A stretch of 64,000 bases of DNA from Macrostomum lignano (GCA_002269645.1 NIVC01001206.1:271704-335703); one strand, 5' to 3'; counted from the first letter of the stretch, positions 13,181 through 64,000 are shown. Translations and numbers: made by a program. Notes: generated by a model from the letters alone, not told the origin.

Positions 13181-18817
<5,637 letters not shown>

Positions 18818-20657: not shown

Positions 20658-21017
20658 TTTTTTATTAGAGGCAGGGGGGTTGTGTGCACCCTGGCGCACT
20701 TTAAGCGACATTGGCACACAACCGGCGAGAGGCATTACTGCCCATTCCGCCGACTCCCCTGAGCAGGCATACAAGCGCGCGGATACGTACGCAGGCACAC
20801 ACTCACACAGGAGTGTACAGCGGCCCTAACTTTATATTATCGTTAGGCATGTACACTTCACTGCGCCTTGGGGGGTTGACTCTCAAGGCCGTTAATTGCA
20901 CGAGCAGAGCCAAGCCGAGATTCCAATTCAGCCCCAAATTAATGTGACTGCACTTGGAATCGAGCCTGGGTCGCTGGCACACCAGAGCAGCTGCGCTACC
21001 GCTGGGCTACGGCCAAC
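20658..21017 (-). mobile_element. tRNA-derived SINE, copy C
   Basis: Same sequence as copies A and B. 13-bp TSD CATTATTTACATT at 20645-20657 and 21018-21030. Confidence 0.92.
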
Positions 21018-23088: not shown

Positions 23089-26000
23089 TCAGTTGTTATC
23101 ATCGTCTGAGCTGTCCAGACTGATAACTATTGGCTCTGAGGGTCTTGGGGCAGCAGGGGCAGGCGGAGGAGGTTGGGGCTGCTGCGGCTCCTGAGCATTC
23201 GAAGGCGAGGCCACAGCGTTCGCTGCAGCCGCCGGCGTTGCCGCCGCTGCCACCGCCGCCCCATCGCCGTCCGTCAACTCATCGTCGCTCTCCGTCAGAT
23301 CAAAATGATTGACAGTGGCGGCTGCCGCCCTTCCATTCTGAGTCTCCGATCCAGCAGCAGCCGTGGCAGATGCCGAAGCAGCTGACGGATCCGACGCAGT
23401 CGACTTGGCCGCGGCGCCGCTGTCGGCCGCTGGATGGTCAGCCGAGTCGCGATCGACGGCTGCCGACCAGCTGCCGTCTGGCAGGAACTGCAGCCGCTCC
23501 AGCTCGGAGCTGGTCGGGCTGGACAGAACCTCCTGGCGAGCGAGTTGGGAATGCGTGCAGAATTATCTGACTTCAACTCGCTTTCAATCGTTTCTTCTGA
23601 TACTCTAATGCCATCTGGGAGATGCTTGCCATCTGGGAGATGCTTGCCATCTGGGGGATGCTTGCCATCTGGGGGATGCTTGCTAGGTGGGAGAAGCTTG
23701 CTATCTGGGAGATGCTTGCCATCTGGGGGATGCTTGCCATCTGGGGGATGCTTGCTAGGTGGGAGAAGCTTGCTATCTGGGAGATGCTTGCCATCTGGGG
23801 GATGCTTGCCATCTGGGGGATGCTTGCTAGGTGGGGGAAGCTTGCTAGGTGGGGGAAGCTTGCTATCTGGGGGATGATTGCTAGGTGGGAGAAGCTTGCT
23901 ATCTGGGAGATGCTTGCCATCTGGGGGATGCTTGCCATCTGGGGGATGCTTGCTAGGTGGGGGAAGCTTGCTAGGTGGGGGAAGCTTGCTATCTGGGGGA
24001 TGCTTGCTATCTGGGAGATGCTTGCCATCTGGGGGATGCTTGCCAGGTGGGAGAAGCTTGCTATCTGGGAGATGCTTGCCATCTGGGGGATGCTTGCCAT
24101 CTGGGGGATGCTTGCTAGGTGGGGGAAGCTTGCTATCTGGGAGATGCTTGCCATCTGGGGGATGCTTGCCATCTGGGGGATGCTTGCTAGGTGGGAGAAG
24201 CTTGCTATCTGGGAGATGCTTGCCATCTGGGGGATGCTTGCCATCTGGGGGATGCTTGCTAGGTGGGGGAAGCTTGCTATCTGGGAGATGCTTGCCATCT
24301 GGGGGATGCTTGCCATCTGGGGGATGCTTGCCATCTGGGGGATGCTTGCCATCTGGGGGATGCTTGCTAGGTGGGAGAAGCTTGCTATCTGGGAGATGCT
24401 TGCCATCTGGGGGATGCTTGCCATCTGGGGGATGCTTGCTAGGTGGGGGAAGCTTGCTATCTGGGAGATGCTTGCCATCTGGGGGATGCTTGCTAGGTGG
24501 GGGATGCTTGCTAGGTGGGGGAAGCTTGCCATCTTGGGGATGCTTGCTATCTGGGGGATGCTTGCCATCTGGGGGATGCTTGCTAGGTGGGGGAAGCTTG
24601 CCATCTGGGGGATGCTTGCTATCTGGGGGATGCTTGCCATCTGGGGGATGCTTGCTATTTGGGGATCAATGCTTGAATGCTGTCTGGGGATGCTTGCTGT
24701 CTTGGGATGTTTTGTTTTTAGAGGGAATGTCTTGTTTTTTATGAAGGCTTTATTTCGCTGTCTATTTGTTATTTGTAAAGAACAAAGATTCTATCCAGAT
24801 GCGCCCCATCGGGGGGCGAAGATTGCTTGTCTGATACTCTAATTGAGACTAAATTGGATTCATAGATTGAGTCTTCATCGGATGACAAAGACCTCATTCG
24901 TCTACGTCTGCCAACTGATTTTTTTATTGTAGATTCCGTACCTTCAGCCTTCTTGTCAATGACGACTCGGACTTGAATTTATAGGACTACAGAAAGGAGC
25001 GATTACCTAGTTACATAGACCAAGAAGCCTCATTGCAGTCAGTGCAGGTAACACAGGTAAAATAAGATAGAAGTGACTCTTAGACGACTCTAAAACAACC
25101 AGATGTCAAGGCACAAGTCGCCAAAAGTCGATCGCATAAGAGTCAATTCGACTCTGAAACGACTCTGAGGCGTTCTTTCTGAATATAGCTGTCGCTCTAG
25201 TCGTTAAAAAGCAACAAGAGTCGCCTCAGGGTCGCTAGTGAGTTATTTGAAATGACTCTTTTATCGATTCTTGTCACGGTAACAAGTTCAACGGGGTGCC
25301 TTCAACTCTTTTCAGTGCTGTTCGTGTCTACTGAGAAACTCTTGAACTTTCTATCCAAAGTGTTGCAACTATCGCTGATATAACTTACCTGAAAATAGGC
25401 ATCAATATAGAGCTGGCCATAGGGCGACGGCTGGTCGCAGAACGGGCACTTCCACACGGGCTTCTTGGCATTCATAGCCAAGTAGGAGTAGGCATCGAAG
25501 CACTGCACATGAGAGCAGGCCTCCGATCGCATTGGCGTGCTCATGCGCATCTTGCCCAGCGGGCACTTCAACGAAGCCACCAGCTCAGTGACGGCCAGCT
25601 CGCAGTCGGACGGGCTCAGCTTTTCACGGATCATTGTTCGAGTGAAATCGGCCGCGCGAATGCCGCGATCCCGAATCCGATCGATCAGGTCAACCGGGGT
25701 CAGGGCGCGGACCAGACAGATCTTACGGGGTTTTATTGTTTTGTATATGAAATATGAATGTAATAACTATTATACAATAAAATAATGATAATAATTGATG
25801 ACACCGCCCAAATTGGACCAGATGTGCAACCAACAACTCAGCCGCAGCTATTGGGCGGCGCATCTAAAGGGTGCGTACGGCTGTTCAGTCCAAGGACTGG
25901 GGGGGTCGCCACACGCACCCTCAATTAACCTCAGCTAATGCTGGCACCCATCTTACAGCTGGGTGAACTAAAGCATTGCAGAGTTAAGTGTCTTGCTGAA

Positions 26001-31013: not shown

Positions 31014-32298
31014 TTGGGTGTTGCAAAAGTCTTTTCAGTAAATTAAAACCAACATGAAAAGTAGTATTCTTCAAATATTTAAGTATTTTGGCAGCTAAAA
31101 CTTTTTGCATGTGTTCATGACTTGCAATAGTTAATATTACTCAAAGTAGCTGCCTCCAGCTTCAATGGCTTTCTGAAGGTGTCCTTGGAAAGCTCTGCAA
31201 GAGTCATGGATGTAGGCTGGTAACATAGCATTCTACTCTTCTGTCACAACAGCCTTTAGCGACTCAATGTTGCTGTGGCAAACAGCATAGGCCTTGCCCT
31301 CAATGTGCACCTACAGACTATAGTCAAACAGCAACATCTGGCAATGATGGTGGCCAGTATGACTTTGGCCCAAAGTTCATGTTCTGCTCCAGCCACTCCT
31401 GTGCAACCCTTGATATGTGTGCAGGTGCTCCATCCTGTTGAAACACATAATTTCCATCAGGAAAGTTGGCATCAACCCACAGCTTGATTTTGCTAGCAAT
31501 AACATTTATGTACTCTGCTCCAGTCAGTTGGTATCCAACAGGAAACCACACCAATGGGCAGACACAGCCATTCGATGCAATAACACCATGCATCATCACA
31601 CTTAAGGGGTACTGATTGGTTGTTGAAATGAACCTAACTGACTCCAGAATGTCCTCCTCAAGCTTGATGAGTGTGTCATTGCAACAGTTTTGAGCAGGAT
31701 CCATGTTGAAGTTCTTCTTGTCACTGAAGATGATAATGCATCCAGTAGGGGCTGACTTCAAATCGTTCAGGAGTAGGCTTGCTCTTTCCAGATTGTTCTG
31801 CCATATCGTGTCACTTAGCAGAGGCCGCTCCTGCACTGTGAGGGACTTGCCACCAAGCTTTTCATGGTTCTTGAGATGGTCAACTTGTGGACATTGAATT
31901 CTTGTCCTTGGCTTGCCATTGAATGCTTTGGATTCTCAAGAATGGCATTGTGAAGCTCAGAATTGCTCATTGCCACTGGCCAGCCACTCTGGGGTTTGTC
32001 TTTTAAAGTGTTTTCAACTTCTTCATTGGCCATTTGCTTCTTGATGTTGTATACTGTTCTTTTAGTGCAGTTTATCATTGTAGCAACATCTTTAGGTTTA
32101 ATACCTGGGCATAGCAAGGTAGCAATCTGGTACCTTTTCATCTCCATCTTTAACAAAGTGGTCAGATTGATCTGAAATGCTAGCCAAAACCTTAGATTAT
32201 ATTGCTATATAGCTGGCTAAATGGGCTAGCTTGTAATGTGTATCTTTTTCTATTTATATGCATTTACAGATCACTAAAAAGACTTTTACAATACCCAG
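31014..32298 (-). mobile_element. Decayed Tc1/mariner DNA transposon (DDxD type, maT/DD37D-like), ~1.29 kb
   Basis: TIRs TTGGGTGTTGCAAAAGTCTTTTCAGT and ACTAAAAAGACTTTTACAATACCCAG, each flanked by TA. Frameshifted transposase: HTH (IATLL..GIKPKDVA..INCTKRTVYNI), IIFSDKKNF, VFQQDGAPAH, WPPSLPD, then DYSL..., ...AIEAGGSYFE*. Confidence 0.92.
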
Positions 32299-32859
32299 TA
32301 TCTTTAGATGTACTAAAATAAAATGCACAACATCTACATATATTATAACATATAGGGCTATTATAGTAAGCTAACTTAATGATCTTTCAGTTCATAGTGG
32401 TGCTAAAATTTGAAAGTACAGTATGCCAAATCATTTGATTTATGTACTTAGTTAAAAAAATATGACCTTTCTTCAAAGGTTCTACTATACATAATTTAGC
32501 ATGCATATTCTGAATTGTTATGATTTGCATTGCTCACCAAGATTTGATTTATATATTTGCATTGCTACTATTTGTTTTTCTAGATATATAACTAGCAATC
32601 TAGTGTGGCCCCCTTTGGAGCACCCAGTAAGAAAGGAGCAAAAATAGTTCATGGAAGTTCATGGAAAACAATTAAAAAAACACATTTTCTTAAAAATCAA
32701 TTCCTTCTTCACTTTTAAAAATCACCTTATTCATGTAAAATTGTCACGGACAAAGATGTTTGCTATGAATATCTTTTTTTCTAAAATTAACAAACAGACA
32801 ACAAAATATAGCTTTCACAAAGATAACAGACATTTCTCCTAAAAAAGAAAATATTCCCA

Positions 32860-33100
32860 AGACAGCAAGCATACCCCCAGATAGCAAGAACCCCCTTCAA
32901 AAAGTAAGCAACCACAGATAGCAAGCATCCCTTAATACTTGTAGCAAGCATCCACTTAGATAACAAGCATCACCCTAGATAGCAAGCATTTTGCAGATAG
33001 CAAGCATCCCCCAGATAGAAGCTTCCACCTAGATAGCAAGCATTCTGCAGATAGCAAGCATCCCCCAGATATGTGTTGAAGCATCCCCCAGATAGCAAGT
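32860..33100. repeat. Degenerate reverse-complement relics of the 18-bp minisatellite
   Basis: ATAGCAAGCATCCCCCAGAT-type units, the reverse complement of the 23603-24720 unit. Confidence 0.75.
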
Positions 33101-33660: not shown

Positions 33661-33876
33661 AGGTCTTTTTAATTAGCCCTTTAATAAAAGCTTTCAATAA
33701 AAATTTACACTGCTTTTACCCTACACAGATTTAAACCCAGGTTGCTAACAGGCTGAGAAGCTGGGCTTGCATCCTATTTGTCTGCTAGAAAAAGCAGTTT
33801 TGTTTGCTAGCAGGCAAAAAGGTGGCAAACAAAAAATAATTGCACACCTGCCAAAGTAGGCCTCTTAGAACTTTTA

Positions 33877-36228
33877 TCTCTACATATAAAAATCAAAACT
33901 CTGTCTGTATGTCTATGGACAATTTTGTTTGCTATGGACTCCCAAACCGCTCAACCAAATTACACCAAACTTTACACCCACCCTAAACTTACTACGGAGA
34001 ATGTCTTAGGCTACCTTAAAATTTCCTAAACTCAAGTCTTCTTACCTAAAAGTACAAAAAACTGCTCAAAATGTGCAATTTTTTCACTAAATCCTTTATA
34101 GCGCCACTCCAGTTTTACCAATCCTCTTCAAATTTGACATGAACAATCTTCAACTATCTTGACACAATTGTGTAAAATTTTGAGTCTTAAAGTTAATCCT
34201 GAACAGTGCTATGCACTTTTAAAGTTGGGCTGCTTTTTTCAGCGAGACAGCCACTCCAACCTCTGCTGCCTGCCTCTCTTTCATGATCTGGGCCCAGATG
34301 TGTAAAAGGGTTTCAAAATTGACTAACTTTCAGCTGCCATAAGTTTTTTCCACGTAAAGCAATTGACTTTAAACTTGACACAATTCTTAATTGACTTGTT
34401 CTCTGTCTAAATATAAAGTTTTAACTTTCTAACTCAATCAGAACAGAAACTGTAAGCACATGAAGTTTGTCTGCTTTTTCTGTTGTTTGTGCCACTCACT
34501 CACTCATTCCCCCAGAGCCAGATGAAGGATCAGGCAATAGGACTGAATGTACATAGCAAATGTACAGTGTTTTGGAATAACTTTTTTTATAGCCTTCTCG
34601 CACCCCGAGAGTGGAGAGGCTACGTTTAGTCATAACAGTTTAGTGAGAAATTCTAACCACTGCCTGCCCTCCCCTCTGTATTGGCAAACTCTGCAGCAAT
34701 TTAACAGTGGATGGCAATTGGCAAATCGAGGGAATCCATCAAAAAAAGCGAAAGCAAAAAGCAGTTTGTAAAAGCGAAAGATTTATGTAAAGGCGATGCG
34801 ATGCAATGCACAATGCAATACAACCCTACTAAATTAGGCACACTATGGAAATTTTAGGTTTCTTTTAAAGGTAGTGTATAAATTTTAAATGGCTTCCTAA
34901 GAAATGCATATTTCCTTGGTTGTTATTGTTAGACTGATGCAGACTGCAATGGAGCTGAAGATACACAGATTCCTTTCAGGGCTGCAAATTGGCAAGAAAG
35001 ATGACGTGATCAAAGCATGAGAACAACAATGAGAGTAGTACGTCCCACAAACTGGCTTTCGAAGCAGGGATTGGCAGACTTTTACTTCAAAAGCAGATAA
35101 AGAATTCAGCTTATGTGCAGGCCAGATGAGAGTGGAAGGAGAAGGAATAGACTATTAGAAGAGAGGAGAGGCAAGAGGGGGATTAGATAAAACATGGAAG
35201 ATAAGAGGAGAGACAAGTGGTGAGGAGAGAGCAGAAAAGAAGAGAGGAAGAAGCGAGAGGAGGGGAGAAAGGAGGGAGAGAAAAGGGTAAAGCTGAGAAG
35301 AGGGGAGAGATGAGACAGAGGATCGATGAGAGGAGAGTAGAGAAGAGTGAGAAGAGAGTAGAGATGAGAGACCAGAAAGAAGATGACAGAGGGTCAAGAG
35401 GAGAGGAGACATTAGAGAGGAGAGAGTAGAAAGGATAGAGAAGAGAGGAGATAAGGGGAGAGAGGAGTGAGAAGAGAAGAGATAGAGATAAGAGAGGGGT
35501 GTAAGAGGGAGAAAGGAGAGATGAGATTGCAGAGATGAGACAGATTAAAGGAGAGATGAGAGAGTAAAGATGAGAGATGAAAAGGTGAGAGGAGAGTACA
35601 GAGAGACGAGAGAAGATAATAGAGGAGAGAGAGTATAGAAGAGGGAAGAGAAAAGAAGAGAGGAGTAAGGAAAGAGAGGAGTCAGAAGAGGTGAAAGAGA
35701 AGAGTACAGAGGAGATAAGTGAGAGAACGTATAAGAGAGTAAAGATGACAGATGAGAGAGCAAAGATGAGGGTGAACAGACAAGAGATGGGAGAGTAGAG
35801 AGAACAGAGGAGAGATAAGAGAGATGAAAGAGAAGAGAGATAAGAGAAGATACAAGAGAAGAGAGGAGAGAAGAGAGAGGAGAGAGGAGAGACAAGGGAC
35901 GAGAGAGAAGAGAGGAAACACAAGAGACAATAGAAATTTTAAAGGATCTAAGGGACGTAAGGAAAGTCAGGGAGAGACCAGAGTTTGCCAATATATGTTT
36001 TAGAGTCAGACAGACATTGCCTGACATTCTTTGGAGTACCCCAGCCAACAATATCAATGTTTGCCTCAAACCCTAATTTTACACATTGTGCTTCATTTTG
36101 TCTACCTCTATCCTACAAACTATTAACAAGTTTTTGTTTGTTTATGGCCTTAGATTTCAGAATACATGCAAAAGTATTCCGGGGATTGGAATTCCCCAGG
36201 TTCAAAATCTGCGGGTTGCAACAGCTTG
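33877..36228 (+). mobile_element. Non-autonomous Helitron, copy 3 (more diverged)
   Basis: A|TCTCTACATATAAAAATC start; end GGGGATTGGAATTCCCC...GCGGGTTGCAACAGCTTG|T. Same internal blocks as copies 1 and 2. Confidence 0.87.
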
Positions 36229-38309: not shown

Positions 38310-39119
38310 TCATGGTTTTTGTCTGCCATGGTTTCCGATTGTTGAATGGCTGTCTCGGTTTGTAATACTTGTCGTCCGATGAGGATAATTAATTTGATAA
38401 TGTCCTTCTTGTCCGCAGTAGTAGCATCTGGCTTGTGCTTGTTCGTTTCTTCTTTTTTGTTCGGCGATAGCAGCTGTTTGATGTTGCATCAGCTTGTTTA
38501 ATTGCTGCGTCAACTTCTGCACGTCAGTGTTGCCTGTTGTCATTAATGGGGCACTGGCTTCCCCATTGCATTCCGCACCGCAGAAGTTCTTCGGTCTCGA
38601 TGTTTTCTCGCAAAAGTCTGTCCCGGAGTGACGGCTGTGCATTGTTTATTACATGCAGGATCAGATTTTGTTCACGATCCATCAATCGCTGTCGCTCTCT
38701 AGCTCATATATAGCGGCTAATTCTGCCGCACCCAAAGGTGGTTGGTCCGCAGCTGACAGTTGGCTGATGCAGTGCCTTAATTATCTGACAGACGTCGTCC
38801 ACACAAAGGTTAGAAAGGATTCCGTTGCTTGCATTCTTCTGTTGTGCAGCTTGTGCAGTAGCACCGATCTGTTTGTGCCACAACGGTTGAAGTGCTCGCG
38901 CAGTTGAATGATTAATGCCGAGTAATTTTGCTGTGTTGCCGCATCCAGTTTGCCGTAAATTTCTCGCGTAGTGCCTTGGAGGAGAGGTGGCAACAGTTGC
39001 GCCTTTTCTGGATTTTGTGGGTTGTATTCCCTACATACCAAGTCGAAATGATCCACGAAAGTGTTAAAATCTTTTTCCATAGAGAACGTGCCGACTTGGA
39101 TTGGATTGCGCCGCGCCAT
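38310..39119 (-). pseudogene. Degraded Ty3/Gypsy-like gag with CCHC zinc-knuckle remnant
   Basis: MARRNPIQVGTFSMEKDFNTFVDHFDLVC...KAQLLPPLLQGTTREIYGKLD...YSALIIQLREHF resembles a retrotransposon capsid N-terminus. Downstream frame has RCYYCGQEGHYQINYP (last Cys lost). Contains stops and frameshifts. Confidence 0.75.
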
Positions 39120-39833
39120 GTTAAGTTGTTGATGGGATAGAACGGTAGGTCTATTTGTACAGTCTGGGTCGATTTGTAACGGATCTTCCAGTGTGGTGTT
39201 TTTCTCGGAATAAACTTCGACTGTAATGGATTGTCTTGCGGTGTTTCTGACACGTCAATTTGTTACTTGCTGGTCCGAGCGAAGTTGTTCTTTATGTTAC
39301 CATTGGCTGACCGCAAACGCACTTTGTTTTATTCGCTTGCCGATTTTGCACTTACGAGTATGCGGCGTCCCGCAAAAGTGTATCTTCAAGTGGTGTCGAA
39401 GTGTAGAATTGTCTTCTTGTATTGCAAGTTCTTTTCTTTTTTGTGTTTTTGTTTGTTTTTTGTTTTCCTTTATTAATTAATTTCTGTTTGTTTTAATGCT
39501 TACCAATGAAGTTGTAATTGATTTTCGGTTTTGTTTTAGCTTGTTCCGACGAAAGTTTTAATTAATTTTCAGCTTGTTTTGAAATTACACTTGCTCGAGC
39601 TCGTTAAAACAAAATTAACACGCGTGCTCAAATTCTTTCACTCAAAATTGACAGGTTCTAAAGCCTGTACGCAAAAAATTACTCGAGTTTCACAGAGTAC
39701 GAAAATCGAAAAGTGTTAACTCTAACACGTGCGCACAAAATTAATGAAGACGCTCTCTCGTTACGTAACAATAGCTTGATCAGGGCTATTGCTCAAAAAG
39801 CTTGAGTAGTGCCGAGAGGGCGAGATCACCAAT

Positions 39834-50066: not shown

Positions 50067-53000
50067 TTGAGAATGACAGCCCGGTAACCTGCTTGTTTGA
50101 GAACGATGACCTGCTTGTTTGAGAACGATGACCTGCTTGTTTGAGAACGATGACCTGCTTGTTTGAGAACGATGACCTGCTTGTTTGAGAACGATGACCT
50201 GCTTGTTTGAGAACGATGACCTGCTTGTTTGAGAACGATGACCTGCTTGTTTGAGAACGATGACCTGCTTGTTTGAGAACGATGACCTGCTTGTTTGAGA
50301 ATGATGACCTGTTTGTTTGAGAATGATGACCCGCTTGTTTGAGAACGATGACCTGCTTGTTTGAGAATGATGACCTGTTTGTTTGAGAATGATGACCCGC
50401 TTGTTTGAGAACGATGACCTGCTTGTTTGAGAATGATGACCCGCTTGTTTGAGAACGATGACCTGCTTGTTTGAGAATGATGACCCGCTTGTTTGAGAAC
50501 GATGACCTGCTTGTTTGAGAATGATGACCTGTTTGTTTGAGAATGATGACCCGCTTGTTTGAGAACGATGACCTGCTTGTTTAAGAATGATGACCTGTTT
50601 GTTTGAGAATGGTGACCCGCTTGTTTGAGAACGATGACCTGCTTGTTTAAGAATGATGACCCGCTTGTTTAAGAACGATTACCTGCTTGTTAAGGAATGA
50701 TGACCCGCTTGCTTGAGAATGATGACCTGCTTCTTAAAGAATGATGACCCGCTTGTTTAAGAATGATGACCTGCTTGTTTGAGAACGATGGCCTGCTTGT
50801 TTGAGAACGATGACCTGCTTGTTTGAGAATGATGACCTGCTTGTTTGAGAACGATGACCCGCTTGTTTAAGAATGATGACCCGCTTGTTTGAGAACAATG
50901 ACCTGCTTGTTAAAGAATGATGACCCGCTTGTTTAAGAATGATGACCCGCTTGTTTAAGAACAATGACCTGCTTGTTAAAGAATGATGACCCGCTTGCTT
51001 GAGAATGATGACCTGCTTGTTAAAGAATGATGACCCGCTTGTTTAAGAATGATGACCCGCTTGTTTAAGAACGATGACCTGCTTGTTAAATAATGATGAC
51101 CCGCTTGTTTAAGAATGATGACCCGCTTGTTTAAGAATGATGACCCGCTTGTTTAAGAATGATGAACGCTTGTTTAAGAATGATGACGTGTTCGTTTGAG
51201 AATGATGACCCGCTTGTTTAGGAATGATGACCCGCTTGCTTGAGAATGATGACCCGCTTGTTTGAGAATGATGACCTGCTTGTTTGAGAATGATGACCCG
51301 CTTGTTTGAGAACGATGACCTGCTTGTTAAAGAATGATGACCCGCTTGCTTGAGAATGATGACCTGCTTCTTAAAGAATGATGACCCGCTTGTTTAAGAA
51401 TGATGACCCGCTTGCTTGAGAATGATGGCCTGCTTGTTTGAGAATGATGACCCGCTTGTTTAAGAATGATGACCCGCTTGCTTGAGAATGATGACCTGCT
51501 TGTTAAAGAATGATGACCCGCTTGTTTAAGAATGATGACCCGCTTGTTTAAGAACGATGACCTGCTTGTTAAAGAATGATGACCCGCTTGTTTAAGAATG
51601 ATGACCCGCTTGTTTAAAAATGATGACCCGCTTGTTTGAGAATGATGACCTGCTTGTTTGAGAATGATGACCCGCTTGTTTAAGAATGATGGCCTGCTTG
51701 TTTGAGAATGATGGCCTGCTTGCTTGAGAATGATGACCTGCTTGTTTGAGAATGATGACCTGCTTCTTAAAGAATGATGACCCGCTTGTTTGAGAATGAT
51801 GACCCGCTTGTTTGAGAATGATGGCCTGCTTGTTTGAGAATGATGGCCTGCTTGTTTGAGAATGATGACCTGCTTTTTGAGAATGATGACCTGCTTGTTT
51901 GAGAATGATGACCTGCTTGTTTGAGAATGATGACCTGCTTGTTAAAGAATGATGACCCGCTTGTTTGAGAATGATGACCTGCTGCTTGTTTGAGAATGAT
52001 GACCCGCTTGTTTGAGAATGATGACCCGCTTGTTTGAGAACGATGACCTGCTTGTTTGAGAATGATGACCTGCTTGTTAAAGAATGATGACCCGCTTGTT
52101 TGAGAATGATGACCCGCTTGTTTGAGAACGATGACCTGCTTGTTTAAGAATGATGACCCGCTTGTTTAAGAACGATGACCTGCTTGTTAAAGAATGATGA
52201 CCCGCTTGCTTGAGAATGATGACCTGCTTCTTAAAGAATGATGACCCGCTTGTTTAAGAACGATGGCCTGCTTGTTTGAGAACGATGGCCTGCTTGTTTG
52301 AGAACGATGACCTGCTTGTTTGAGAACGATGACCTGCTTGTTTGAGAATGATGACCTGCTTGTTTGAGAATGATGACCTGCTTGTTTGAGAACGATGACC
52401 CGCTTGTTTAAGAATGATGACCCGCTTGTTTGAGAACAATGACCTGCTTGTTAAAGAATGATGACCCGCTTGCTTGAGAATGATGACCTGCTTGTTAAAG
52501 AATGATGACCCGCTTGTTTAAGAATGATGACCCGCTTGTTTAAGAACGATGACCTGCTTGTTAAATAAAGATGACCCGCTTGTTTAAGAATGATGACCCG
52601 CTTGTTTAAGAATGATGACCCGCTTGTTTAAGAATGATGACCGCTTGTTTAAGAATGATGACCCGCTTGTTTAAGAATGATGACGTGTTCGTTTGAGAAT
52701 GATGACCCGCTTGTTTAAGAATGATGACCCGCTTGCTTGAGAATGATGACCCGCTTGTTTGAGAATGATTACCTGCTTGTTTGAGAACGATGACCTGCTT
52801 GTTAAAGAATGATGACCCGCTTGCTTGAGAATGATGACCTGCTTCTTAAAGAATGATGACCCGCTTGTTTGAGAATGATGACCCGCTTGTTTAAGAATGA
52901 TGGCCTGCTTGTTTGAGAATGATGGCCTGCTTGCTTGAGAATGATGACCTGCTTGTTTGAGAATGATGACCTGCTTCTTAAAGAATGATGACCCGCTTGT

Positions 53001-56000
53001 TTGAGAATGATGACCCGCTTGTTTGAGAATGATGGCCTGCTTGTTTGAGAATGATGGCCTGCTTGTTTGAGAATGATGACCTGCTTTTTTGAGAATGATG
53101 ACCCGCTTGTTTAAGAATGATGGCCTGCTTGTTTGAGAATGATGACCTGCTTGTTTGAGAATGATGACCTGCTTGTTTGAGAATGATGACCTGCTTGTTT
53201 GAGAATGATGACCTGCTTGTTTGAGAATGATGACCCGCTTGTTTGAGAATGATGACCCGCTTGTTTAAGAACGATGACCTGCTTGTTAAAGAATGATGAC
53301 CCGCTTGTTTAAGAATGATGACCCGCTTGTTTAAGAATGATGACCCGCTTGTTTAAGAATGATGACCCGCTTGTTTAAGAATGATGACCTGCTTGTTTAA
53401 GAATGATGACGTGTTCGTTTGAGAATGATGACCTGCTTGTTTAAGAATGATGGCCTGCTTGTTTGAGAATGATGACCTGCTTGTTTGAGAATGATGACCC
53501 GCTTGTTTAAGAATGATGACCTGCTTGTTTGAGAATGATGACCCGCTTGTTTAAGAATGATGACCCGCTTGTTTGAGAATGATGACCTGCTGCTTGTTTG
53601 AGAATGATGACCTGCTTGTTTGAGAATGATGACCCGCTTGTTTAAGAATGATGGCCTGCTTGTTTGAGAATGATGACCTGCTTGTTTGAGAATGATGACC
53701 CGCTTGTTTGAGAATGATGACCTGCTTGTTTGAGAATGATGACCCGCTTGTTTAAGAATGATGGCCTGCTTGTTTGAGAATGATGACCTGCTTGTTTGAG
53801 AATGATGACCCGCTTGTTTAAGAATGATGACCTGCTTGTTTGAGAATGATGACCTGCTGCTTGTTTGAGAATGATGACCTGCTTGTTAAAGAATGATGAC
53901 CCGCTTGTTTGAGAATGATGACCCGCTTGTTTGAGAACGATGACCTGCTTGTTTGAGAATGATGACCTGCTTGTTTAAGAACGATGACCCGCTTGTTTGA
54001 GAATGATGACCCGCTTGTTTAAGAATGATGACCTGCTTGTTTGAGAATGATGACCTGCTGCTTGTTTGAGAATGATGACCTGCTTGTTAAAGAATGATGA
54101 CCCGCTTGTTTGAGAATGATGACCCGCTTGTTTGAGAACGATGACCTGCTTGTTTGAGAATGATGACCTGCTTGTTAAAGAATGATGACCCGCTTGCTTG
54201 AGAATGATGACCTGCTTCTTAAAGAATGATGACCCGCTTGTTTAAGAACGATGGCCTGCTTCTTTGAGAACGATGGCCTGCTTGTTTGAGAATGATGACC
54301 TGCTTGTTTGAGAACGATGACCTGCTTGTTTGAGAATGATGACCTGCTTGTTTGAGAATGATGACCTGCTTGTTTGAGAACGATGACCCGCTTGTTTAAG
54401 AATGATGACCCGCTTGTTTGAGAACAATGACCTGCTTGTTAAAGAATGATGACCCGCTTGCTTGAGAATGATGACCTGCTTGTTAAAGAATGATGACCCG
54501 CTTGTTTAAGAATGATGACCCGCTTGTTTAAGAACGATGACCTGCTTGTTAAATGATGACCCGCTTGTTTAAGAATGATGACCCGCTTGTTTAAGAATGA
54601 TGACCCGCTTGTTTAAGAATGATGCCCGCTTGTTTAAGAATGATGACCGCTTGTTTAAGAATGATGACGTGTTGTTTGAGAATGATGACCCGCTTGTTTA
54701 AGAATGATGACCCGCTTGCTTGAGAATGATGACCGCTTGTTTGAGAATGATGACCTGCTTGTTTGAGAACGATGACCTGCTTGTTAAAGAATGATGACCC
54801 GCTTGCTTGAGAATGATGACCTGCTTCTTAAAGAATGATGACCCGCTTGTTTGAGAATGATGACCCGCTTGTTTAAGAATGATGCCTGCTTGTTTGAGAA
54901 TGATGCCTGCTTGCTTGAGAATGATGACCTGCTTGTTTGAGAATGATGACCTGCTTTTAAAGAATGATGACCCGCTTGTTTGAGAATGATGACCCGCTTG
55001 TTTGAGAATGATGCCTGCTTGTTTGAGAATGATGCCTGCTTGTTTGAGAATGATGACCTGCTTTTTGAGAATGATGACCCGCTTGTTTAAGAATGATGGC
55101 CTGCTTGTTTGAGAATGATGACCTGCTTGTTTGAGAATGATGACCTGCTTGTTTGAGAATGATGACCTGCTTGTTTGAGAATGATGACCTGCTGCTTGTT
55201 TGAGAATGATGGCCTGCTTGTTTAAGAATGATGGCCTGCTTGTTTGAGAATGATGACCTGCTTGTTTAAGAATGATGGCCTGCTTGTTTGAGAATGATGA
55301 CCCGCTGCTTGTTTGAGAATGATGACCTGCTTGTTTGAGAATGATGACCTGCTTGTTTGAGAATGATGACCTGCTTGTTTGAGAATGATGACCCTGCTTG
55401 TTTGAGAATGATGACCTGCTTGTTTGAGAATGATGACCTGCTTGTTTGAGAATGATGACCCGCTTGTTTAAGAACGATGACCTGCTTGTTAAAGAATGAT
55501 GACCCGCTTGTTTAAGAATGATGACCCGCTTGCTTGAGAATGATGGCCTGCTTGTTTGAGAATGATGACCTGCTTGTTTGAGAATGATGACCTGCTTGTT
55601 TGAGAATGATGACCCGCTTGTTTGAGAATGATGACCCGCTTGTTTGAGAAAATGATGACCTGCTTGTTAAAGAATGATGACCCGCTTGTTGAGAATGATG
55701 ACCTGCTTGTTAAAGAATGATGACCCGCTTGTTTAAGAATGATGACCCGCTTGTTTAAGAACGATGACCTGCTTGTTAAATGATGACCCGCTTGTTTAAG
55801 AATGATGACCCGCTTGTTTAAGAATGATGACCCGCTTGTTTAAGAATGATGACCCGCTTGTTTAAGAATGATGACCCGCTTGTTTAAGAATGATGACCCG
55901 CTTGTTTGAGAATGATGACCCGCTTGTTTAAGAATGATGACCCGCTTGTTTGAGAATGATGACCGCTTGTTTGAGAATGATGACCTGCTTGTTTGAGAAT

Positions 56001-59000
56001 GATGACCTGCTTGTTTGAGAATGATGACCTGCTTGTTGAGAATGATGACCTGCTTTTAAGAATGATGACCCGCTTGTTTGAGAATGATGACCCGCTTGTT
56101 TGAGAATGATGACCTGCTTGTTTGAGAATGATGGCCTGCTTGTTTGAGAATGATGACCTGCTTGTTTGAGAATGATGACCTGCTTGTTTGAGAATGATGA
56201 CCTGCTTGTTTGAGAATGATGACCCGCTTGTTTGAGAATGATGACCTGCTTGTTTGAGAATGATGCCTGCTTGTTTGAGAATGATGCCTGCTTGTTTGAG
56301 AATGATGACCTGCTTGTTTGAGAATGATGACCTGCTTGTTTGAGAATGATGACCTGCTTGTTTGAGAATGATGACCTGCTTGTTTGAGAATGATGACCTG
56401 CTTGTTTGAGAATGATGACCTGCTTGTTTGAGAATGATGACCTGCTTGTTTGAGAATGATGACCTGCTTGTTTAGAATGATGACCTGCTTGTTTGAGAAT
56501 GATGACCTGCTTGTTTGAGAATGATGACCTGCTTGTTTGAGAATGATGACCTGCTTGTTTGAGAATGATGACCTGCTTGTTTGAGAATGATGACCTGCTT
56601 GTTTGAGAATGATGCCTGCTTGTTTGAGAATGATGACCTGCTTGTTTGAGAATGATGACCTGCTTGTTTGAGAATGATGACCTGCTTGTTTGAGAATGAT
56701 GACCTGCTTGTTTGAGAATGATGACCTGCTTGTTTGAGAATGATGACCTGCTTGTTTGAGAATGATGACCTGCTTGTTTGAGAATGATGACCTGCTTGTT
56801 TGAGAATGATGACCTGCTTGTTTGAGAATGATGACCTGCTTGTTTGAGAATGATGACCCGCTTGTTTAAGAACGATGACCTGCTTGTTAAAGAATGATGA
56901 CCCGCTTGTTTAAGAATGATGACCCGCTTGCTTGAGAATGATGGCCTGCTTGTTTGAGAATGATGACCTGCTTGTTTGAGAATGATGACCTGCTTGTTTG
57001 AGAATGATGACCCGCTTGTTTGAGAATGATGACCCGCTTGTTTGAGAACAATGACCTGCTTGTTAAAGAATGATGACCCGCTTGCTTGAGAATGATGACC
57101 TGCTTGTTAAAGAATGATGACCCGCTTGTTTAAGAATGATGACCCGCTTGTTTAAGAACGATGACCTGCTTGTTAAATGATGACCGCTTGTTTAAGAATG
57201 ATGACCCGCTTGTTTAAGAATGATGACCCGCTTGTTTAAGAATGATGCCCGCTTGTTTAAGAATGATGACCGCTTGTTTAAGAATGATGACGCTGTTGTT
57301 TGAGAATGATGACCGCTTGTTTAAGAATGATGACCCGCTTGTTGAGAATGATGACCGCTTGTTTGAGAATGATGACCTGCTTGTTTGAGAATGATGACCT
57401 GCTTGTTAAGAATGATGACCCGCTTGTTTGAGAATGATGACCTGCTTCTTAAAGAATGATGACCCGCTTGTTTGAGAATGATGACCCGCTTGTTTAAGAA
57501 TGATGGCCTGCTTGTTTGAGAATGATGGCCTGCTTGTTGAGAATGATGACCTGCTTGTTTGAGAATGATGACCTGCTTTTAAGAATGATGACCGCTTGTT
57601 TGAGAATGATGACCCGCTTGTTTGAGAATGATGCCTGCTTGTTTGAGAATGATGGCCTGCTTGTTTGAGAATGATGACCTGCTTTTTGAGAATGATGACC
57701 GCTTGTTTAAGAATGATGGCCTGCTTGTTTGAGAATGATGACCTGCTTGTTTGAGAATGATGACCTGCTTGTTTGAGAATGATGACCTGCTTGTTTGAGA
57801 ATGATGACCTGCTTGTTTGAGAATGATGCCTGCTTGTTTAAGAATGATGCCTGCTTGTTTGAGAATGATGACCTGCTTGTTTAAGAATGATGCCTGCTTG
57901 TTTGAGAATGATGACCTGCTTGTTTGAGAATGATGACCTGCTTGTTTGAGAATGATGACCTGCTTGTTTGAGAATGATGACCTGCTTGTTTGAGAATGAT
58001 GACCGCTGCTTGTTTGAGAATGATGACCTGCTTGTTTGAGAATGATGACCTGCTTGTTTGAGAATGATGACCTGCTTGTTTGAGAATGATGACCTGCTGC
58101 TTGTTTAAGAATGATGGCCTGCTTGTTTGAGAATGATGACCCGCTTGTTTAAGAATGATGACCGCTTGTTTAAGAATGATGACCTGCTTGTTAAGAATGA
58201 TGACCGCTTGTTTAAGAATGATGACCCGCTTGTTGAGAATGATGCCTGCTTGTTGAGAATGATGACCTGCTTGTTTGAGAATGATGACCTGCTTGTTTGA
58301 GAATGATGACCCGCTTGTTTGAGAATGATGACCTGCTTGTTAAAGAATGATGACCGCTTGTTTGAGAATGATGACTGCTTGTTAAAGAATGATGACCCGC
58401 TTGTTTGAGAATGATGACCTGCTTGTTAAAGAATGATGACCCGCTTGTTTGAGAATGATGACCTGCTTGTTAAAGAATGATGACCCGCTTGTTTAAGAAT
58501 GATGACCCGCTTGTTTAAGAACGATGACCTGCTTGTTTGAGAATGATGACCCGCTTGTTTGAGAATGATGACCTGCTTGTTTGAGAATGATGACCTGCTG
58601 CTTGTTTGAGAATGATGACTGTTGTTTGAGAATGATGACCTGCTTGTTTAAGAATGATGACCCGCTTGCTTGAGAATGATGACCTGCTTGTTTGAGAATG
58701 ATGGCCTGCTTGTTTGAGAATGATGACCTGCTTGTTTGAGAATAATGGCCTGCTTGCTTGAGAATGATGACCTGCTTGTTTGAGAATGATGACCCGCTTG
58801 TTTGAGAATGATGACCCGCTTGTTTAAGAATGATGGCCTGCTTGTTTGAGAATGATGACCTGCTTGTTTGAGAATGATGACCCGCTTGTTTAAGAATGAT
58901 GGCCTGCTTGTTTGAGAATGATGACCTGCTTGTTTAAGAATGATGGCCTGCTTGTTTGAGAATGATGACCTGCTTGTTTGAGAATGATGACCTGCTGCTT

Positions 59001-59956
59001 GTTTGAGAATGATGACCTGCTTGTTTGAGAATGATGGCCTGCTTGTTTGAGAATGATGACCTGCTTGTTTGAGAATGATGACCTGCTTGTTTGAGAATGG
59101 TGACCTGCTTGTTTGAGAATGATGACCTGCTTGTTTGAGAATGATGACCTGCTTGTTTGAGAATGATGACCTGCTTGTTTGAGAATGTGACCTGCTTGTT
59201 TGAGAATGATGACCTGCTTGTTTGAGAATGATGACCTGCTTGTTTGAGAATGATGCCTGCTTGTTTGAGAATGATGACCGCTTGTTTAAGAATGATGACC
59301 CGCTTGTTTGAGAATGATGACCTGCTTGTTTGAGAATGATGACCCGCTTGTTTGAGAATGATGACCTGCTTGTTAAAGAATGATGACCCGCTTGTTTAAG
59401 AATGATGACCCGCTTGTTTAGAATGATGACCCGCTTGTTTAAGAATGATGACCTGCTTGTTAAAGAATGATGACCGCTTGTTTGAGAATGATGACCCGCT
59501 TGTTTGAGAATGATGCCTGCTTGTTTGAGAATGATGACCTGCTTGTTTGAGAATGATGACCTGCTTGTTTAAGAATGATGACCTGCTTGTTTGAGAATGA
59601 TGACCTGCTTGTTTGAGAATGATGACCTGCTTGTTTGAGAATGGTGACCTGCTTGTTTGAGAATTATGACCTGCTTGTTTGAGAATGATGACCTGCTGCT
59701 TGTTTGAGAATGATGACCCGCTTGTTTAAGAATGATGACCTGCTTGTTTGAGAATGATGACCTGCTTGTTTGAGAATGATGACCTGCTTGTTTGAGAATG
59801 ATGACCTGCTTGTTTGAGAATGATGACCTGCTTGTTTGAAAATGATGACCCGCTTGTTTGAGAATGATGACCTGCTTGTTTGAGAATGATGACCTGCTTG
59901 TTTGAGAATGATGACCTGCTTGTTTGAGAATGATGACCTGCTTGTTTGAGAATGAT
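50067..59956. repeat. 22-bp satellite array, ~9.9 kb (~450 units)
   Basis: GAGAATGATGACCTGCTTGTTT with variants (AAC/AAT, CCC/CCT, TTAAG/TTGAG, GGCC). Confidence 0.98.
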
Positions 59957-60215
59957 CTGCTCGGCATCAGCCAACATGCAGGCAGTCGACGGTAGGGTGT
60001 CTGCAGCGTGAGCGGCAGCACTTGCGCCGGCTGCGGACAGTAGGATTCGACTGCCTGCTCGATGAGGATGATGTTACCTGCCAGCTGGAGTCGCCGACGG
60101 CGCAACAGTTCACTGGGACGGGACAGGCCGGTGCGGCGATAGAGGGCCGCGTTGGTGACTCACTCGTAGCCGATCTTGAAGGCGGCGCGCAGCAGGGCCA
60201 GCGTGGCCCCCATGG
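59957..60215 (-). mobile_element. RTE-clade non-LTR retrotransposon fragment (C-terminal part of RT ORF), decayed
   Basis: Minus frame ALLRAAFKIGYE*VTNAALYRRTGLSRPSELLRRRRLQLAGNII...ESYCPQP.QVL.LTLQTPYRR matches the RTE post-RT pattern (xVTNxxLYRRxGL...LLRxRRLxxAGH). Contains an internal stop and abuts the satellite. Confidence 0.72.
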
Positions 60216-61534
60216 CACTTTGGGCAGGTCCTATTCTCGTACATGTAAAGAGATCTTTGGTCTTGCAGTCCTCACTGTTTCGGAGTTTATGGTTTGCTAA
60301 TCTAAACTGTGACAGCGTGAACTTTAATTCTAGAGTTTGAAGCTGTAGTAAAATTGACTTCTTCTTTAGTAGTCGTCGTCTTGCTTAAGATCCTCTTCAT
60401 CATCCTTGCTCATGCAGAGCTTGAGGGGCTGAAGAACTGAGTAGTCAGAGTGCATAATCATCGAATTATTGTAGACCTTTTCCTCTTCTTGGTTCTGTAC
60501 CAACGAGGTTCGATTTCTAGATGCAACTACGCAAGTACTTGTCTTGTTAGGGGAAACACCAAAGTAGCAATACAATTAATGCAGAAATATTAGTTGAAGA
60601 TTTTTTAAGTCTCTTCTTTTCTAATCTAGGATTGTAAGATGGAACCTTGTGATGGTAATCAATTTTTAGGGACAAGTTTTGACTGTACGAGTATTGGATG
60701 GACTTTTTCTTATTAGCTGGTATGGATATGGAGTAGACAGACAGAACGAGCTCACATGCTGCAGGGTTATCTTCCTTAAAAGTACATTGACCAATTTTTA
60801 TGCTTTATGTGTCAGACTGAAGATAATTTTTCAACGAAAAAACTTGTTATTTGAATTTCCTTTCTATCTGGCTTCGGTCAAGATTTACACCAGGAAATGT
60901 GAAGGAAGGTCAGTACTAGTGTTACTCAACCTCGAATGTCTGTGGTGTCACATTTCCAATGCACCTCGGTACTTTGAAATTGGTCAAGGTACGTGTCAAA
61001 CTCTCTCTGCTTGATAGACTTTCATTGGTCACTTGCAACCATTGCCTCCCAAGCGCACTGGCACTACACTCTTACAACATGCTAAAGTTTCCACCATGAA
61101 ACCAGTGGTCAACTTTTCTCAGATTTCGGTCCCAAGTGACGCAATTCACATCCCGTCCGCGGATCGACTTTGGGTGATGCAACTTGCGTTACAAGCTTAG
61201 GCTGGTGAGGAGAGAGTGGAGAGTTATATGGCTAGGTTTAGATTAAAGCTGCCACTCTCTTACTTTAACAGGAACTTTAACATGCTGATGAGTGTGTTAT
61301 ATACACCAAGGTCCTACTATGGCTGCCACCTTTCTTTAAAAGTATCTTCTACGAGCGTAAGGTAGAGCCCTGTGGTGGAGGGTTACCTTAGGTAACCAAG
61401 CAAGTCACAAGGAGTCACTGATTAGTTTATTCGCGGGTTAAGGTCTATCAGTAAGCACACTTTCCGGGACTAAAGATTCCATGAGGAATGTGGACCCGCA
61501 GCCAGCAAGGAAGCAAGCAGTCATGCTCATTGCG

Positions 61535-61612
61535 TTAACCCCTGAGCACGCCTATGCACACGGTTACGTTCGCAGGCACAATCACACAAGGTGTACAGTG
61601 GACCTGAAGGAG
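61535..61612 (-). other. Diverged match to the central body of the tRNA-SINE
   Basis: CCCCTGAGCACGCCTAT..GCACACGGTTACGTTCGCAGGCACAATCACACAAGGTGTACAGTGGACCT aligns to SINE CCCCTGAGCAGGCATACAAGCGCGCGGATACGT.CGCAGGCACACACTCACACAGGAGTGTACAGCGGCCCT. Confidence 0.55.
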
Positions 61613-62444
61613 CGGCTCTTCATAAGCGAGAATCGCACAAGCACCAGGCAAATATTTCTTGCACAAGCCCCAAAATACGAGTACTTGGCCATATGTCTTA
61701 TAACACATGTTATATGTTATTTTCTTCATGTGTAGAGTTTTATTTTACTACTTACTGCATTGAAACAAGTAGTCTGTGTTGCATATGGTTGCATAATTTT
61801 CTTTTATTTTTTAGCACTTTTTGCAGCATGTGTGTCTACTTTGAATTTTACGTTTTAATTCCGGGCCGAACTTTATTCAATGCATTCTCCAATTTCCGAT
61901 GAAATCCCTATTTTATCCACTAGGAACCCAAGGAGGAGAACGATTGGGAAGTCTCGCGTTTCTAGTCGACTTGAAATCGATCAATATCAGCCCTAATTTC
62001 TCTCCATTCCAGTGCTTAATTTCTACGTCCACTTTCGTGAGTATCAAGACGTCACATCACGGGCCACGCAGTGTAGTCGCATTCTGTCTTTATTTAGACA
62101 GTCTCTTGCTCTCTCGTGTATCTTTCAAAATTAGTGTCGATCCAGTTTATCGCACGTGCAGTTAACGCTCGTTGTTCAATATCAAAAATGTGCACTTAAG
62201 TTTCTACGAGTATACAATGTGGAATAATTGGGTCTCTACTTTCTCCCTCAATGCCGGAAGACTCACTCAGCCTCACAATCAAACCACGATGAGGTGGCTC
62301 CTCAAGCCTATACTCGTAGTAGCTATGTGCGTGCCGCCCAAGGCATAGAGACTCCCAAAACGCACTTAGTAGTAGGGCGAATTATGATACTGCCGCACTA
62401 GCACTGGCGAGATAGGCGGCAATGCAAATGTATAGGGAAAAATA

Positions 62445-62945
62445 CACTGCGGAGATATGAGCCCTATCTCTGTGCATTGGGGACGGCTAAGCACTGCAGA
62501 GATATGAGCTCTATCTCTGTGCATTGGGGACGGCTAAGCACTGCAGAGATATGAGCTCTATCTCTGTGCATTGGGGACGGCTAAGCACTGCAGAGATATG
62601 AGCTCTATCTCTGTGCATTGGGGACGGCTAAGCACTGCAGAGATATGAGCTCTATCTCTGTGCATTGGGGACGGCTAAGCACTGCAGAGATATGAGCTCT
62701 ATCTCTGCTTAACACAGGAGTGATAGGAGAAGAGGCGGCCTATTTCTTTACACTGGAGATGGTTAACACTGCAGAGATAGGAGGAGAGGCGGCCTATCTT
62801 CTTTGCATTGGGGTGGTTAACACTGCAGAGATAGGAGGAGAGGCGGCCTATCTCTTTGCATTGGGGTGGTTAACACTGCAGAGATAGGAGGAGAGGCGGC
62901 CTATCTCTTTGCATTGGGGTGGTTAACACTGCAGAGATAAGATGT
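62445..62945. repeat. Two adjacent hairpin-forming tandem repeats (47-bp x ~5, then ~53-bp x ~4)
   Basis: CTGCAGAGATATGAGCTCTATCTCTGTGCATTGGGGACGGCTAAGCA, then CTGCAGAGATAGGAGGAGAGGCGGCCTATCTCTTTGCATTGGGGTGGTTAACA. Confidence 0.92.
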
Positions 62946-62977
62946 TAATCTATGTAATTGGGAGTGGATTTGCGAAA

Positions 62978-63040
62978 GAGCCAATCACAGAGCCCGGAGT
63001 GGGATGGGTGGTTTGGGGTGGTTCGGTCGAGGGTATATAA
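62978..63040 (+). promoter_or_regulatory. CCAAT box, G-rich boxes and TATA box upstream of the PC4-like ORF
   Basis: GAGCCAATCACA 62978-62989, GGGATGGGTGG/GGGGTGG, TATATAA 63034-63040, ATG at 63145. Confidence 0.6.
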
Positions 63041-63144
63041 GCCCGAAATTGACAAGAAAGAATTCTCAATTTTTCAAATCCAAAATTTCATCCGAAATTT
63101 TCCTCAGCTTTTAACTTTTGTGAGTTTTCAATTGCGAAAGGAAA

Positions 63145-63697
63145 ATGGACATCTGTGAAGGCTATAAGGCACAAGTCCAGGAGTTTGAAGGACAAAAATT
63201 TATCGCTATTCGCAAATTTTACCGACACGGCAGCACGGCAAGTCTGAAGCCAGGCGTCCCAGGATTCAACCTGAATGTTCACCAATGGAAGAAATTGAAG
63301 GAGGTGAAACGCTCACTTGTGATTTCTGCACGCAACAACGAGCCCAAGGTCGTGAAACTCGCTTCGATAAGTTTGTGGAAGTCAAAGGCGGCATCATTTG
63401 CTCAAACGGCTGCCGGAAGATTGCTGCGAGGAGTTTTTGAGACGAAACGCCGTACCACTGACTCCGCCGCTGTGGCAGAAGCTCTGGAAAATCGCCTCCT
63501 GGATCGACGGTCAGCTGGTGGCTCCCTTGAGGAACACAATGCAGTACGAGCTGGAGTCTGATGAGGAAGAGGAGGAAGAGGACAAGAAGCTCAAGTTGGA
63601 GGCTGACCAGGACACGAAGCCCATAATGGAGACTGATGAGGGCGGAGATCATGCTGATGAGAGGACGTTAGCTCGCCCACAAGGCCGCGCATTGTGA
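63145..63697 (+). pseudogene. Tandem PC4/Sub1-like ssDNA-binding domain protein with acidic C-tail; two apparent frameshifts (decay or assembly error)
   Basis: Domain 1 KAQVQEFEGQKFIAIRKFY...LKPGVPGFNLNVHQWKKLKE matches the PC4 pattern (V.V.xF.G...I.IRxxY...KPG..Gi.L...QW..LK). After frame switches near 63360 and 63400: FDKFVEVKGGII / LKRLPED...NAVPLTPPLWQKLWKIASWIDGQL, then ESDEEEEEEDKKLKLEADQD. Confidence 0.65.
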
Positions 63698-64000
63698 CTG
63701 AGCCAATCACATCCACACCGATACTTCGGTTGATTCTGATGCTGGACTGCTTCCGCAGCGGACACCAACCTTGAGGAAGATCCGGTGTGGTATCATTCAG
63801 GGCGCATGCGCGGCTTCGACGGTGAGCAGCAGCAGCAGGAAGCGAAAGCTGCATTTCAACTTCGTCGGCAGGACGCGATGAGGCTGCAGCCCAATGTTCG
63901 CTTTGATACTGAACAGCTAGAATGCTTTGAATGCATTGGACTAACTAAATTACTTTTAGCTTGCACATGATTATCAGCCTGACGGCAACTATGCTGTTTT

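Follow-up and report, generated by a model that had tools for sequence, protein, structure and literature searches.

A candidate Maverick/Polinton terminus with a broken PC4-like gene in Macrostomum lignano DNA

The stretch analysed here, which we call the window, is 64,000 nt of Macrostomum lignano DNA (GCA_002269645.1 NIVC01001206.1:271704-335703), numbered from its first letter. The candidate element is located in the last 1.6 kb, about 2.4 kb past a 10-kb satellite of 22-bp units. On the plus strand, it shows an end motif, two tandem arrays, a CCAAT/TATA pair and one broken, intronless gene for a PC4-like protein. The region 62368-64000 is probably one end of an integrated Maverick/Polinton (adintovirus-like) element, or an internally deleted derivative of such an element. 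A preliminary description of the window had already proposed a Maverick/Polinton.

The end motif, tandem arrays and promoter motifs

The motif AGTAGTAG begins at 62368, and GCACTT (62362-62367) is located directly before it, as previously described. AGTAGTAG (62368-62375, +) is an (AGT)2 end motif of the Maverick type and the most likely terminus of the element. In Mavericks, the 5' end motif is (AGT)2 or (AG)3, and in those of vertebrates (AGT)2 is more common than any other (PMC8097293). By its sequence, GCACTT (+) is a candidate 6-bp target-site duplication. AGTAGTAG occurs three times in the window against 1.18 expected, and at least three copies were present in 13 of 100 shuffles; the count alone is not rare. 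The position of AGTAGTAG weighs more than its count. The motif stands 30 nt ahead of the first, degenerate repeat unit. For a distance of 80 nt upstream of the array, picked after the data had been seen, an AGTAGT would be present by chance with a probability of about 0.02, and AGTAGTAG with one of about 0.002; at 500 nt, the chances are 0.13 and 0.011, respectively.

The degenerate first repeat unit (62398-62444, +) was located by alignment, with 66% identity over the 122-nt reference copy starting there. It is followed by 5.6 units of 47 bp (62445-62707, +; 99% matches and 0% indels by Tandem Repeats Finder, TRF), and each unit contains an inverted AGATA/TATCT box pair. All five unit spacings in this array are exactly 47. 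Then 4.3 units of 53 bp are present (62709-62939, +; 93% matches by TRF), with a weak hairpin. According to the alignment, the 47-bp and 53-bp arrays share one common core, and degenerate units are located at both ends. The arrays had been described as tandem hairpin repeats. The tandem arrangement is confirmed, and the hairpin is supported for the two 53-bp units tested, which fold better than shuffles (z = -2.2 and -3.1), but not for the two 47-bp units tested, which do not rise above shuffles (z = 0.0 and -0.95). In the 593 bp from 62368, 15 WGATAR sites were counted, compared with a background of 2.5 per kb. These sites are not independent, because they are copies of one unit. The Rfam scan of 59900-64000 gave no match, and the tRNA scan gave no call. 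A pattern of the repeat core matched bacterial and archaeal genomes singly six times, against about ten expected by chance, with one 33-nt alignment and none longer; these matches were rejected as chance.

A CCAAT box is located at 62978-62989 (+; CCAAT at 62979) and is presumably NF-Y-like. The TATA box TATATAAG (63034-63041, +) is located 111 nt ahead of the first ATG at 63145. No other CCAAT and TATA pair of this kind was found on either strand in the 43,855 unmasked bases of the remaining window, and the tight promoter of the preliminary description is thus retained. A pyrimidine run ending in CAG (63100-63109), 35 nt before the ATG, has what we take to be the look of an acceptor site for splicing or trans-splicing. 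The promoter CCAAT box (62978) contains the 12-mer GAGCCAATCACA, of which an exact second copy is located at 63700-63711, inside the gene. To judge from the sequence, this copy could act for a downstream gene; no TATA box comes after it. No polyadenylation signal was found in 63100-64000.

The PC4-like gene, its relatives and the predicted fold

A single intronless MOSUB-like gene of about 254 codons (763-nt span) was located at 63145 to about 63910 (+), using the frames of its relatives and frameshift-aware alignment. The intact relatives have 246-272 residues, and the span is in agreement with a gene lacking introns, a supporting feature of Mavericks, whereas the neighbouring host genes are exon-split. 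The gene contains 4-8 frame changes. Closely packed intronless open reading frames (ORFs) had been noted in this region. The frames are indeed intronless; the several ORFs are pieces of one gene spread across three frames, because the relatives continue in the other frames of the window and the frameshift-aware alignment joins them. The reading of 63539-63697, 63806-63970 and two reverse ORFs as separate genes was rejected: no Pfam family was matched, and the plus-strand ORFs belong to the one gene.

The first PC4 half-domain (Pfam PF02229) is located at 63166-63303 (+) and scores 33.7 bits (cutoff 25; E = 2.6e-8). The window ORF at 63145 also matches PC4 in the PDB with E = 3.9e-5. A second, degenerate PC4 half-domain is placed at approximately 63363-63520 (+) according to the models, the family profile alignment and the per-frame matches. 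Then an acidic, poorly conserved linker follows (approximately 63540-63750, +; net acidic), which is predicted to be disordered, with a predicted local distance difference test score (pLDDT) below 50. The tail motif LRRQ(E/D)AM, conserved among family members, is located at 63860-63880 (+). The frameshift-aware comparison was performed with four relatives and two penalties, giving eight runs. Two firm frame changes near 63361 and 63399 (63355-63405, +) are identical in all eight runs, and 2-6 more are located at about 63655-63855 (+), at positions that differ by the relative used. Over the first 123 aligned residues, the three closest relatives have an identity of 89-95, and P0004 has one of 69.

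In a HMMER search among 1.84 billion representatives, 78 proteins were matched, and P0079, P0080 and P0081 were added by further searches. The closest match, P0001, is 74% identical to the window over residues 1-74 only. Seven relatives are intact, and source data are available for six of them (all except P0004); these six have no NCBI or UniRef record. At least three family variants exist, which are 63-71% identical to one another. The word-based homologue search using the window ORF confirmed none of 44 candidates, because the frame changes after residue 72. The Atlas search using the same ORF gave no usable match, and most of the nearest Atlas clusters consist of eukaryotic PC4 proteins with 116-134 residues (score 0.87-0.90). 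In bacterial and archaeal genomes, none of 69 pattern matches was confirmed for the protein family. In PHROGs, only matches of E = 0.025-0.057 to an unknown family were obtained, and tblastn of P0053 against the phage collection gave no match.

Four of the six relatives scanned pass the Pfam PC4 cutoff, and the other two score 19.9-21.6. The second half-domain of the scanned relatives has no Pfam match. By BLASTP, no repeat between the two halves was detected in any of four proteins; the repeat is visible only by profile and fold. Among the four full-length relatives, 58 of the first 128 positions are invariant; the acidic middle has 7 such positions in 72, and the last part has 21 in 51. The family starts directly at the PC4 domain, and the long N-terminal extension typical of most canonical PC4 hits inspected is absent. 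A quick tree was built from 64 columns and 150 domain rows of 82 proteins, without the MOSUB sequences; most of its forks are unresolved. In this tree, the eight family rows, including the intact N-terminal part of the window gene, are united in one clade (SH-aLRT 95, stem 0.92), to which none of the 142 other PC4 rows belongs. With this long branch and a support of 95 in the 64-column tree, the family does not group as an orthologue of cellular PC4/SUB1. The family is a distinct PC4 subfamily, and presumably represents a separate duplication of a PC4 gene. Among the other hits, many of P0002, P0005 and P0007-P0066 have two to four canonical PC4 repeats per chain.

The folded models are those of the relatives P0001 and P0053. 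P0053 is a distant member, and is the best scorer outside the alignment A2, with 49.5 bits over profile positions 2-122; the next protein scores 43.7 over 2-78. In both AlphaFold models, two PC4-like halves are present in one chain. The overall pLDDT is 51 for P0001 and 80 for P0053, and the predicted template-modelling score (pTM) of P0053 is 0.75. The type I PC4-like fold class binds single-stranded DNA (ssDNA) (PMC7549692). The feature of type I, two four-strand-plus-helix repeats per chain, is observed in the P0053 model and more weakly in the P0001 model. The hhalign comparison of the family with a tandem-PC4 protein gave 94.6% over 126 columns, and both halves were covered.

The P0053 model fits Pur-alpha with Z = 10.0 and a root-mean-square deviation (r.m.s.d.) of 3.7 over 119 residues, and the next row has Z = 6.2. 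Pur-alpha, Whirly and MRP1/2, which are type I (PMC7549692), have the same order of four strands and a helix, a linker, and four strands and a helix, whereas their identity to the family is 14% or less. Foldseek against the PDB gave no match at E <= 0.001, and its top rows are PC4 and MoSub1. Cellular PC4/SUB1 and MoSub1, which are type II homodimers, resemble the family in the first half-domain, by PF02229, PDB sequence and fold. In contrast, the family is a single chain with a degenerate second half, lacks the long N-terminal region and forms a separate clade. The PC4 homologue of phage T5 (PDB 4bg7) is a virus-encoded PC4 fold implicated in viral DNA replication (PMC7549692). It is a functional analogue for the replication role proposed below, whereas it is a type II dimer from a bacterial host and gives a weak fold match (Z = 3.6-4.5).

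Both models were compared with the viral proteins of BFVD. The top match of P0001 is the MOSUB protein of the Branchiostoma lancelet adintovirus (E = 2e-3, probability 1.00; next E = 1.2e-2). The same MOSUB is the top match of P0053, with E = 1.5e-5 and a query-normalized TM-score (TMq) of 0.59. The MOSUB of the Bos-associated insect adintovirus fits the P0053 model with TMq = 0.60 and an r.m.s.d. of 3.7 over 142 columns. These two MOSUB proteins show the highest TMq among the 50 rows shown for P0053. The MOSUB proteins A0A5H3CIS2 (203 residues, Branchiostoma lancelet) and A0A5H3CT48 (197 residues, Bos-associated insect) have the same predicted two-half PC4-like fold as the family. The members of the window family are longer (246-272 residues), with the acidic linker and the LRRQ(E/D)A tail.

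The frame changes are slightly better explained, in our judgement, as local sequence-assembly errors in a young copy; true decay is a serious possibility. The end branch of the window N-terminal part is 0.099, compared with 0.084-0.12 in the intact relatives, and no excess divergence is observed. No stop codon is present on any of the eight alignment paths of the window gene. The satellite at 50087-59956 consists of about 450 copies of a 22-bp unit, and its off-length units have 20, 21 or 23 bases, nearly all being short. Short or long units account for 3 of 109 at 50-54 kb and 47 of 218 at 54-60 kb (p = 1e-6). The off-length rate at 54-60 kb predicts 7-10 breaks in the window gene. In the 45 units of 21 bases, the missing base is found at 11 different positions. 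In the 42-bp satellite at 27-28 kb, all 43 units are exact. A local drop in sequence quality after about 54 kb is possible. Two observations weigh against errors: none of the five unit lengths of the 47-bp array is a variant (P = 0.04-0.10), and 14 of the 45 satellite units of 21 bases lose one same position, as natural variants would.

Interpretation of the element

The (AGT)2 end next to an array, and the PC4-like first gene with a MOSUB fold match, support the Maverick/Polinton reading; the part of the earlier proposal that drew on several ORFs is not retained. As adintoviruses are a proposed viral form of animal Polintons (PMC8502044), the MOSUB fold match of the first gene is a second, independent support. 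The locus shares with Mavericks/Polintons the (AGT)2 end, the length range of terminal inverted repeats (TIRs) and an intronless accessory gene at the edge (PMC8097293, PMC8502044). Vertebrate Maverick TIRs are 46-1447 bp in length, and the candidate TIR of about 570 bp would fit; accessory regions flank the core (PMC8097293). The candidate TIR differs in its palindromic 47-bp and 53-bp units, which are absent from the TIR descriptions in the available parts of PMC8097293 and PMC8502044. In the text layer of Supplementary Fig. S2 of PMC8502044, the first map reads '...Penton Hexon MAEL MOSUB ITR', and MOSUB is the last gene before the inverted terminal repeat (ITR). This apparent ITR-adjacent position in one published map is similar to the edge position of the window gene. 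The name MOSUB does not occur in the main text of that paper, as far as it was available, and occurs once in the supplement as stored, which is incomplete. Because the name exists, PC4-like Polinton genes had already been annotated in 2021. No papers on PC4-like genes of Polintons or Mavericks were found, in a search whose coverage excludes most subscription journals and Repbase. One literature match pairing PC4 with Polinton/Maverick was rejected, since PC4 was an unrelated table label.

Elements of this class carry a retroviral-type integrase, make a short duplication and copy themselves using a protein-primed polymerase (10.1101/2023.08.22.554363, PMC6431247, PMC8097293). If the Maverick/Polinton reading holds, AGTAGTAG and the arrays would form the TIR. 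The element would have entered by its retroviral-type integrase with a 6-bp duplication, and would be copied from its termini by the protein-primed polymerase. The CCAAT/TATA promoter next to the TIR, possibly aided by the repeated GATA-like boxes, would drive the accessory gene at the edge. According to the models, the product may fold its two PC4 half-repeats into a type I PC4/Pur-alpha-like domain which binds ssDNA. Given such an element, we somewhat favour a role in strand-displacement replication, in which the product coats or melts the displaced strand. The main alternative role, which is less likely, is co-activation of viral transcription as performed by host PC4. The locus itself is of little weight, and the gene is of some use. 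If the family is the ssDNA-binding protein of Polintons, a gap in the replication of these elements is filled, and intact natural relatives exist.

Maverick membership is unproven, because no polymerase, integrase, capsid, paired TIR or target-site duplication is present within the window. Several points weigh against the assignment. No polymerase, integrase, ATPase, protease or capsid was found among the window ORFs, nor a second TIR or duplication in the window. The window ends about 1.6 kb into the candidate element, and the inverted partner TIR, absent from the window, is expected 13-25 kb away, outside it (10.1101/2023.08.22.554363). Inverted or dispersed copies of 62368-64000 were not detected within the window, beyond two chance matches of 19-26 nt. 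The MOSUB identity is only 10-15%, and the match is one of fold. By E-value (0.029), the Bos-associated MOSUB is in 24th place, and a probability of 1.00 is likewise reached by several phage proteins. BFVD contains viral proteins only, and its best match is also compatible with a cellular origin. The map position of MOSUB was taken from a PDF text layer of PMC8502044, in which the columns may be off. For the weak P0001 model, no match reached E <= 0.001, and P0053 is only 24-27% identical to the other members, yet gives the stronger fold match. Tandem PC4 repeats are frequent among the other hits. The six relatives with source data are on short, unannotated contigs of 717-1494 nt without context (Logan, JGI or ENA).

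The boundary belongs among these points. The preliminary description had reported a switch from host-like sequence at 62368. No sharp composition step was found there: the GC content is 0.43-0.44 before and 0.51 after, and 0.51 is also observed at 61501-61700. Further AGTAGT motifs are located at 60368, 60440 and 61768. Because the GC step is lacking and AGTAGT occurs at other sites, the exact boundary depends on the motif alone.

The same observations bear on a host gene or pseudogene, namely a retrocopy-like PC4 paralogue which is specific to the lineage and preceded by a minisatellite, and next to which AGTAGTAG would stand by chance. This explanation is quite unlikely. Tandem repeats are abundant in the window (52 TRF rows), 24 AGTAGT motifs are present in 43,855 unmasked bases, and the composition does not step at 62368. 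PC4 is universal in eukaryotes, and eukaryotic PC4 makes up most of the nearest Atlas clusters. However, the family forms a clade of its own on a long branch, separate from canonical PC4, and the six relatives with source data lack a record in NCBI or UniRef. The three or more variants at 63-71% identity are as expected of a diversified element family, and the end motif, array, promoter and gene are all located within 780 bp. Somewhat less improbable, though still unlikely, is the end of a different mobile element with the same PC4-like gene: another linear DNA virus with inverted ends (a different MELD or Polinton-like virus), or a cut-and-paste transposon that is Galileo/Foldback-like, with long and internally repetitive TIRs, or Academ-like (TAG). 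Academ ends start with TAG, and TAGTAGTAG is read from 62367, which would be Academ-like if the end were one base earlier. Galileo typically has long TIRs with internal repeats (PMC3573991), and accessory genes may pass between viral groups. Against such an end, the motif is the exact (AGT)2 of Mavericks, and the only named whole-domain matches among the viral rows shown are the two adintovirus proteins. The ORFs scanned from the region yielded no transposase fragment. An assembly artefact, in which the host contig would continue, past the 10-kb satellite, into sequence of another organism or a free virus, is very improbable. The sequence quality may fall after about 54 kb, and adintoviruses have entered datasets as contaminants (PMC8502044). 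However, 61539-61605 is a 78% match to a dispersed repeat of the window at 12747-12818 and 20756-20827, and therefore the same genome is represented up to a distance of 760 bp from the end motif. In addition, the join would coincide exactly with a canonical end motif.

The Maverick/Polinton reading is thus the one we prefer. Most Maverick/Polinton copies are degraded, and the class is widespread in animals (PMC8097293).

The tail motif of the gene was also considered. LRRQ(E/D)A was found in four of 81 fetched proteins (P0001, P0004, P0079 and P0080), all of which are family members, and only once in the six frames of the window, at 63860. P0081 lacks the motif, and P0003 and P0053 end ahead of it. 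The same six residues are the core of the synthetic CaMKII inhibitor peptide AIP (PMC6469190). The tail motif comes after a basic stretch, and might just as well belong to a basic nuclear-localisation signal. By analogy with AIP, a combined proposal can be formulated. The product would be the Polintons' own ssDNA-binding protein, a MOSUB-type single-chain PC4 duplicate, and this subfamily would have acquired the conserved tail, which would serve as a non-phosphorylatable pseudosubstrate for a CaMK-type kinase of the host; the copy would perhaps be intact and young, and the breaks would be sequence errors. We regard this combination as improbable. If it were true, the protein would couple viral DNA handling to the damping of host kinase signalling.

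Other features of the window

The window is eukaryotic DNA. Its exon-split genes encode a 1-Cys peroxiredoxin, a MIZ-finger protein, which we take to be PIAS-like, and pyruvate carboxylase. Among solved structures, the mitochondrial enzyme is the nearer match of this carboxylase (E = 2.6e-262), ahead of the following entries (1e-201), and this points to an animal. Unusual beside these exon-split neighbours is an uninterrupted frame of 1810 codons at 7041-12473 (+), which consists almost wholly of ankyrin repeats and has an N-terminal stretch predicted to be helical.

The GC-rich segment 59957-60300 (0.56-0.58) directly after the 22-bp satellite is possibly a minus-strand exon or element fragment; no convincing Pfam or Rfam match was obtained for it. 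A broken transposase is located at 31324-32204 (-), in which Pfam matches a helix-turn-helix in one frame, and the next frame contains a stretch similar to a catalytic domain; we assume that it is Tc1/mariner-like. The frame at 38781-39254 (-) presumably resembles a retrotransposon gag fragment, and has no Pfam match.

The dispersed repeat of about 360 bp is located at 5675-6042, 12561-12914 and 20655-21022, with a fragment at 61539-61605. The copies are 93-97% identical, are present in both orientations and have T- or A-rich ends. From its sequence, the repeat may be similar to a short interspersed element or a miniature inverted-repeat transposable element; no tRNA was called. An element of 2.0-2.4 kb, which contains a long GA-rich tract, is present in three copies of 76-80% identity at 13181-15478, 16201-18496 and 33874-35927. 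An 18-bp tandem array is present at 23609-24790 in the region of the MIZ-finger gene, and a related inverted array, about 75% identical, is located 9 kb away at 32771-33099.

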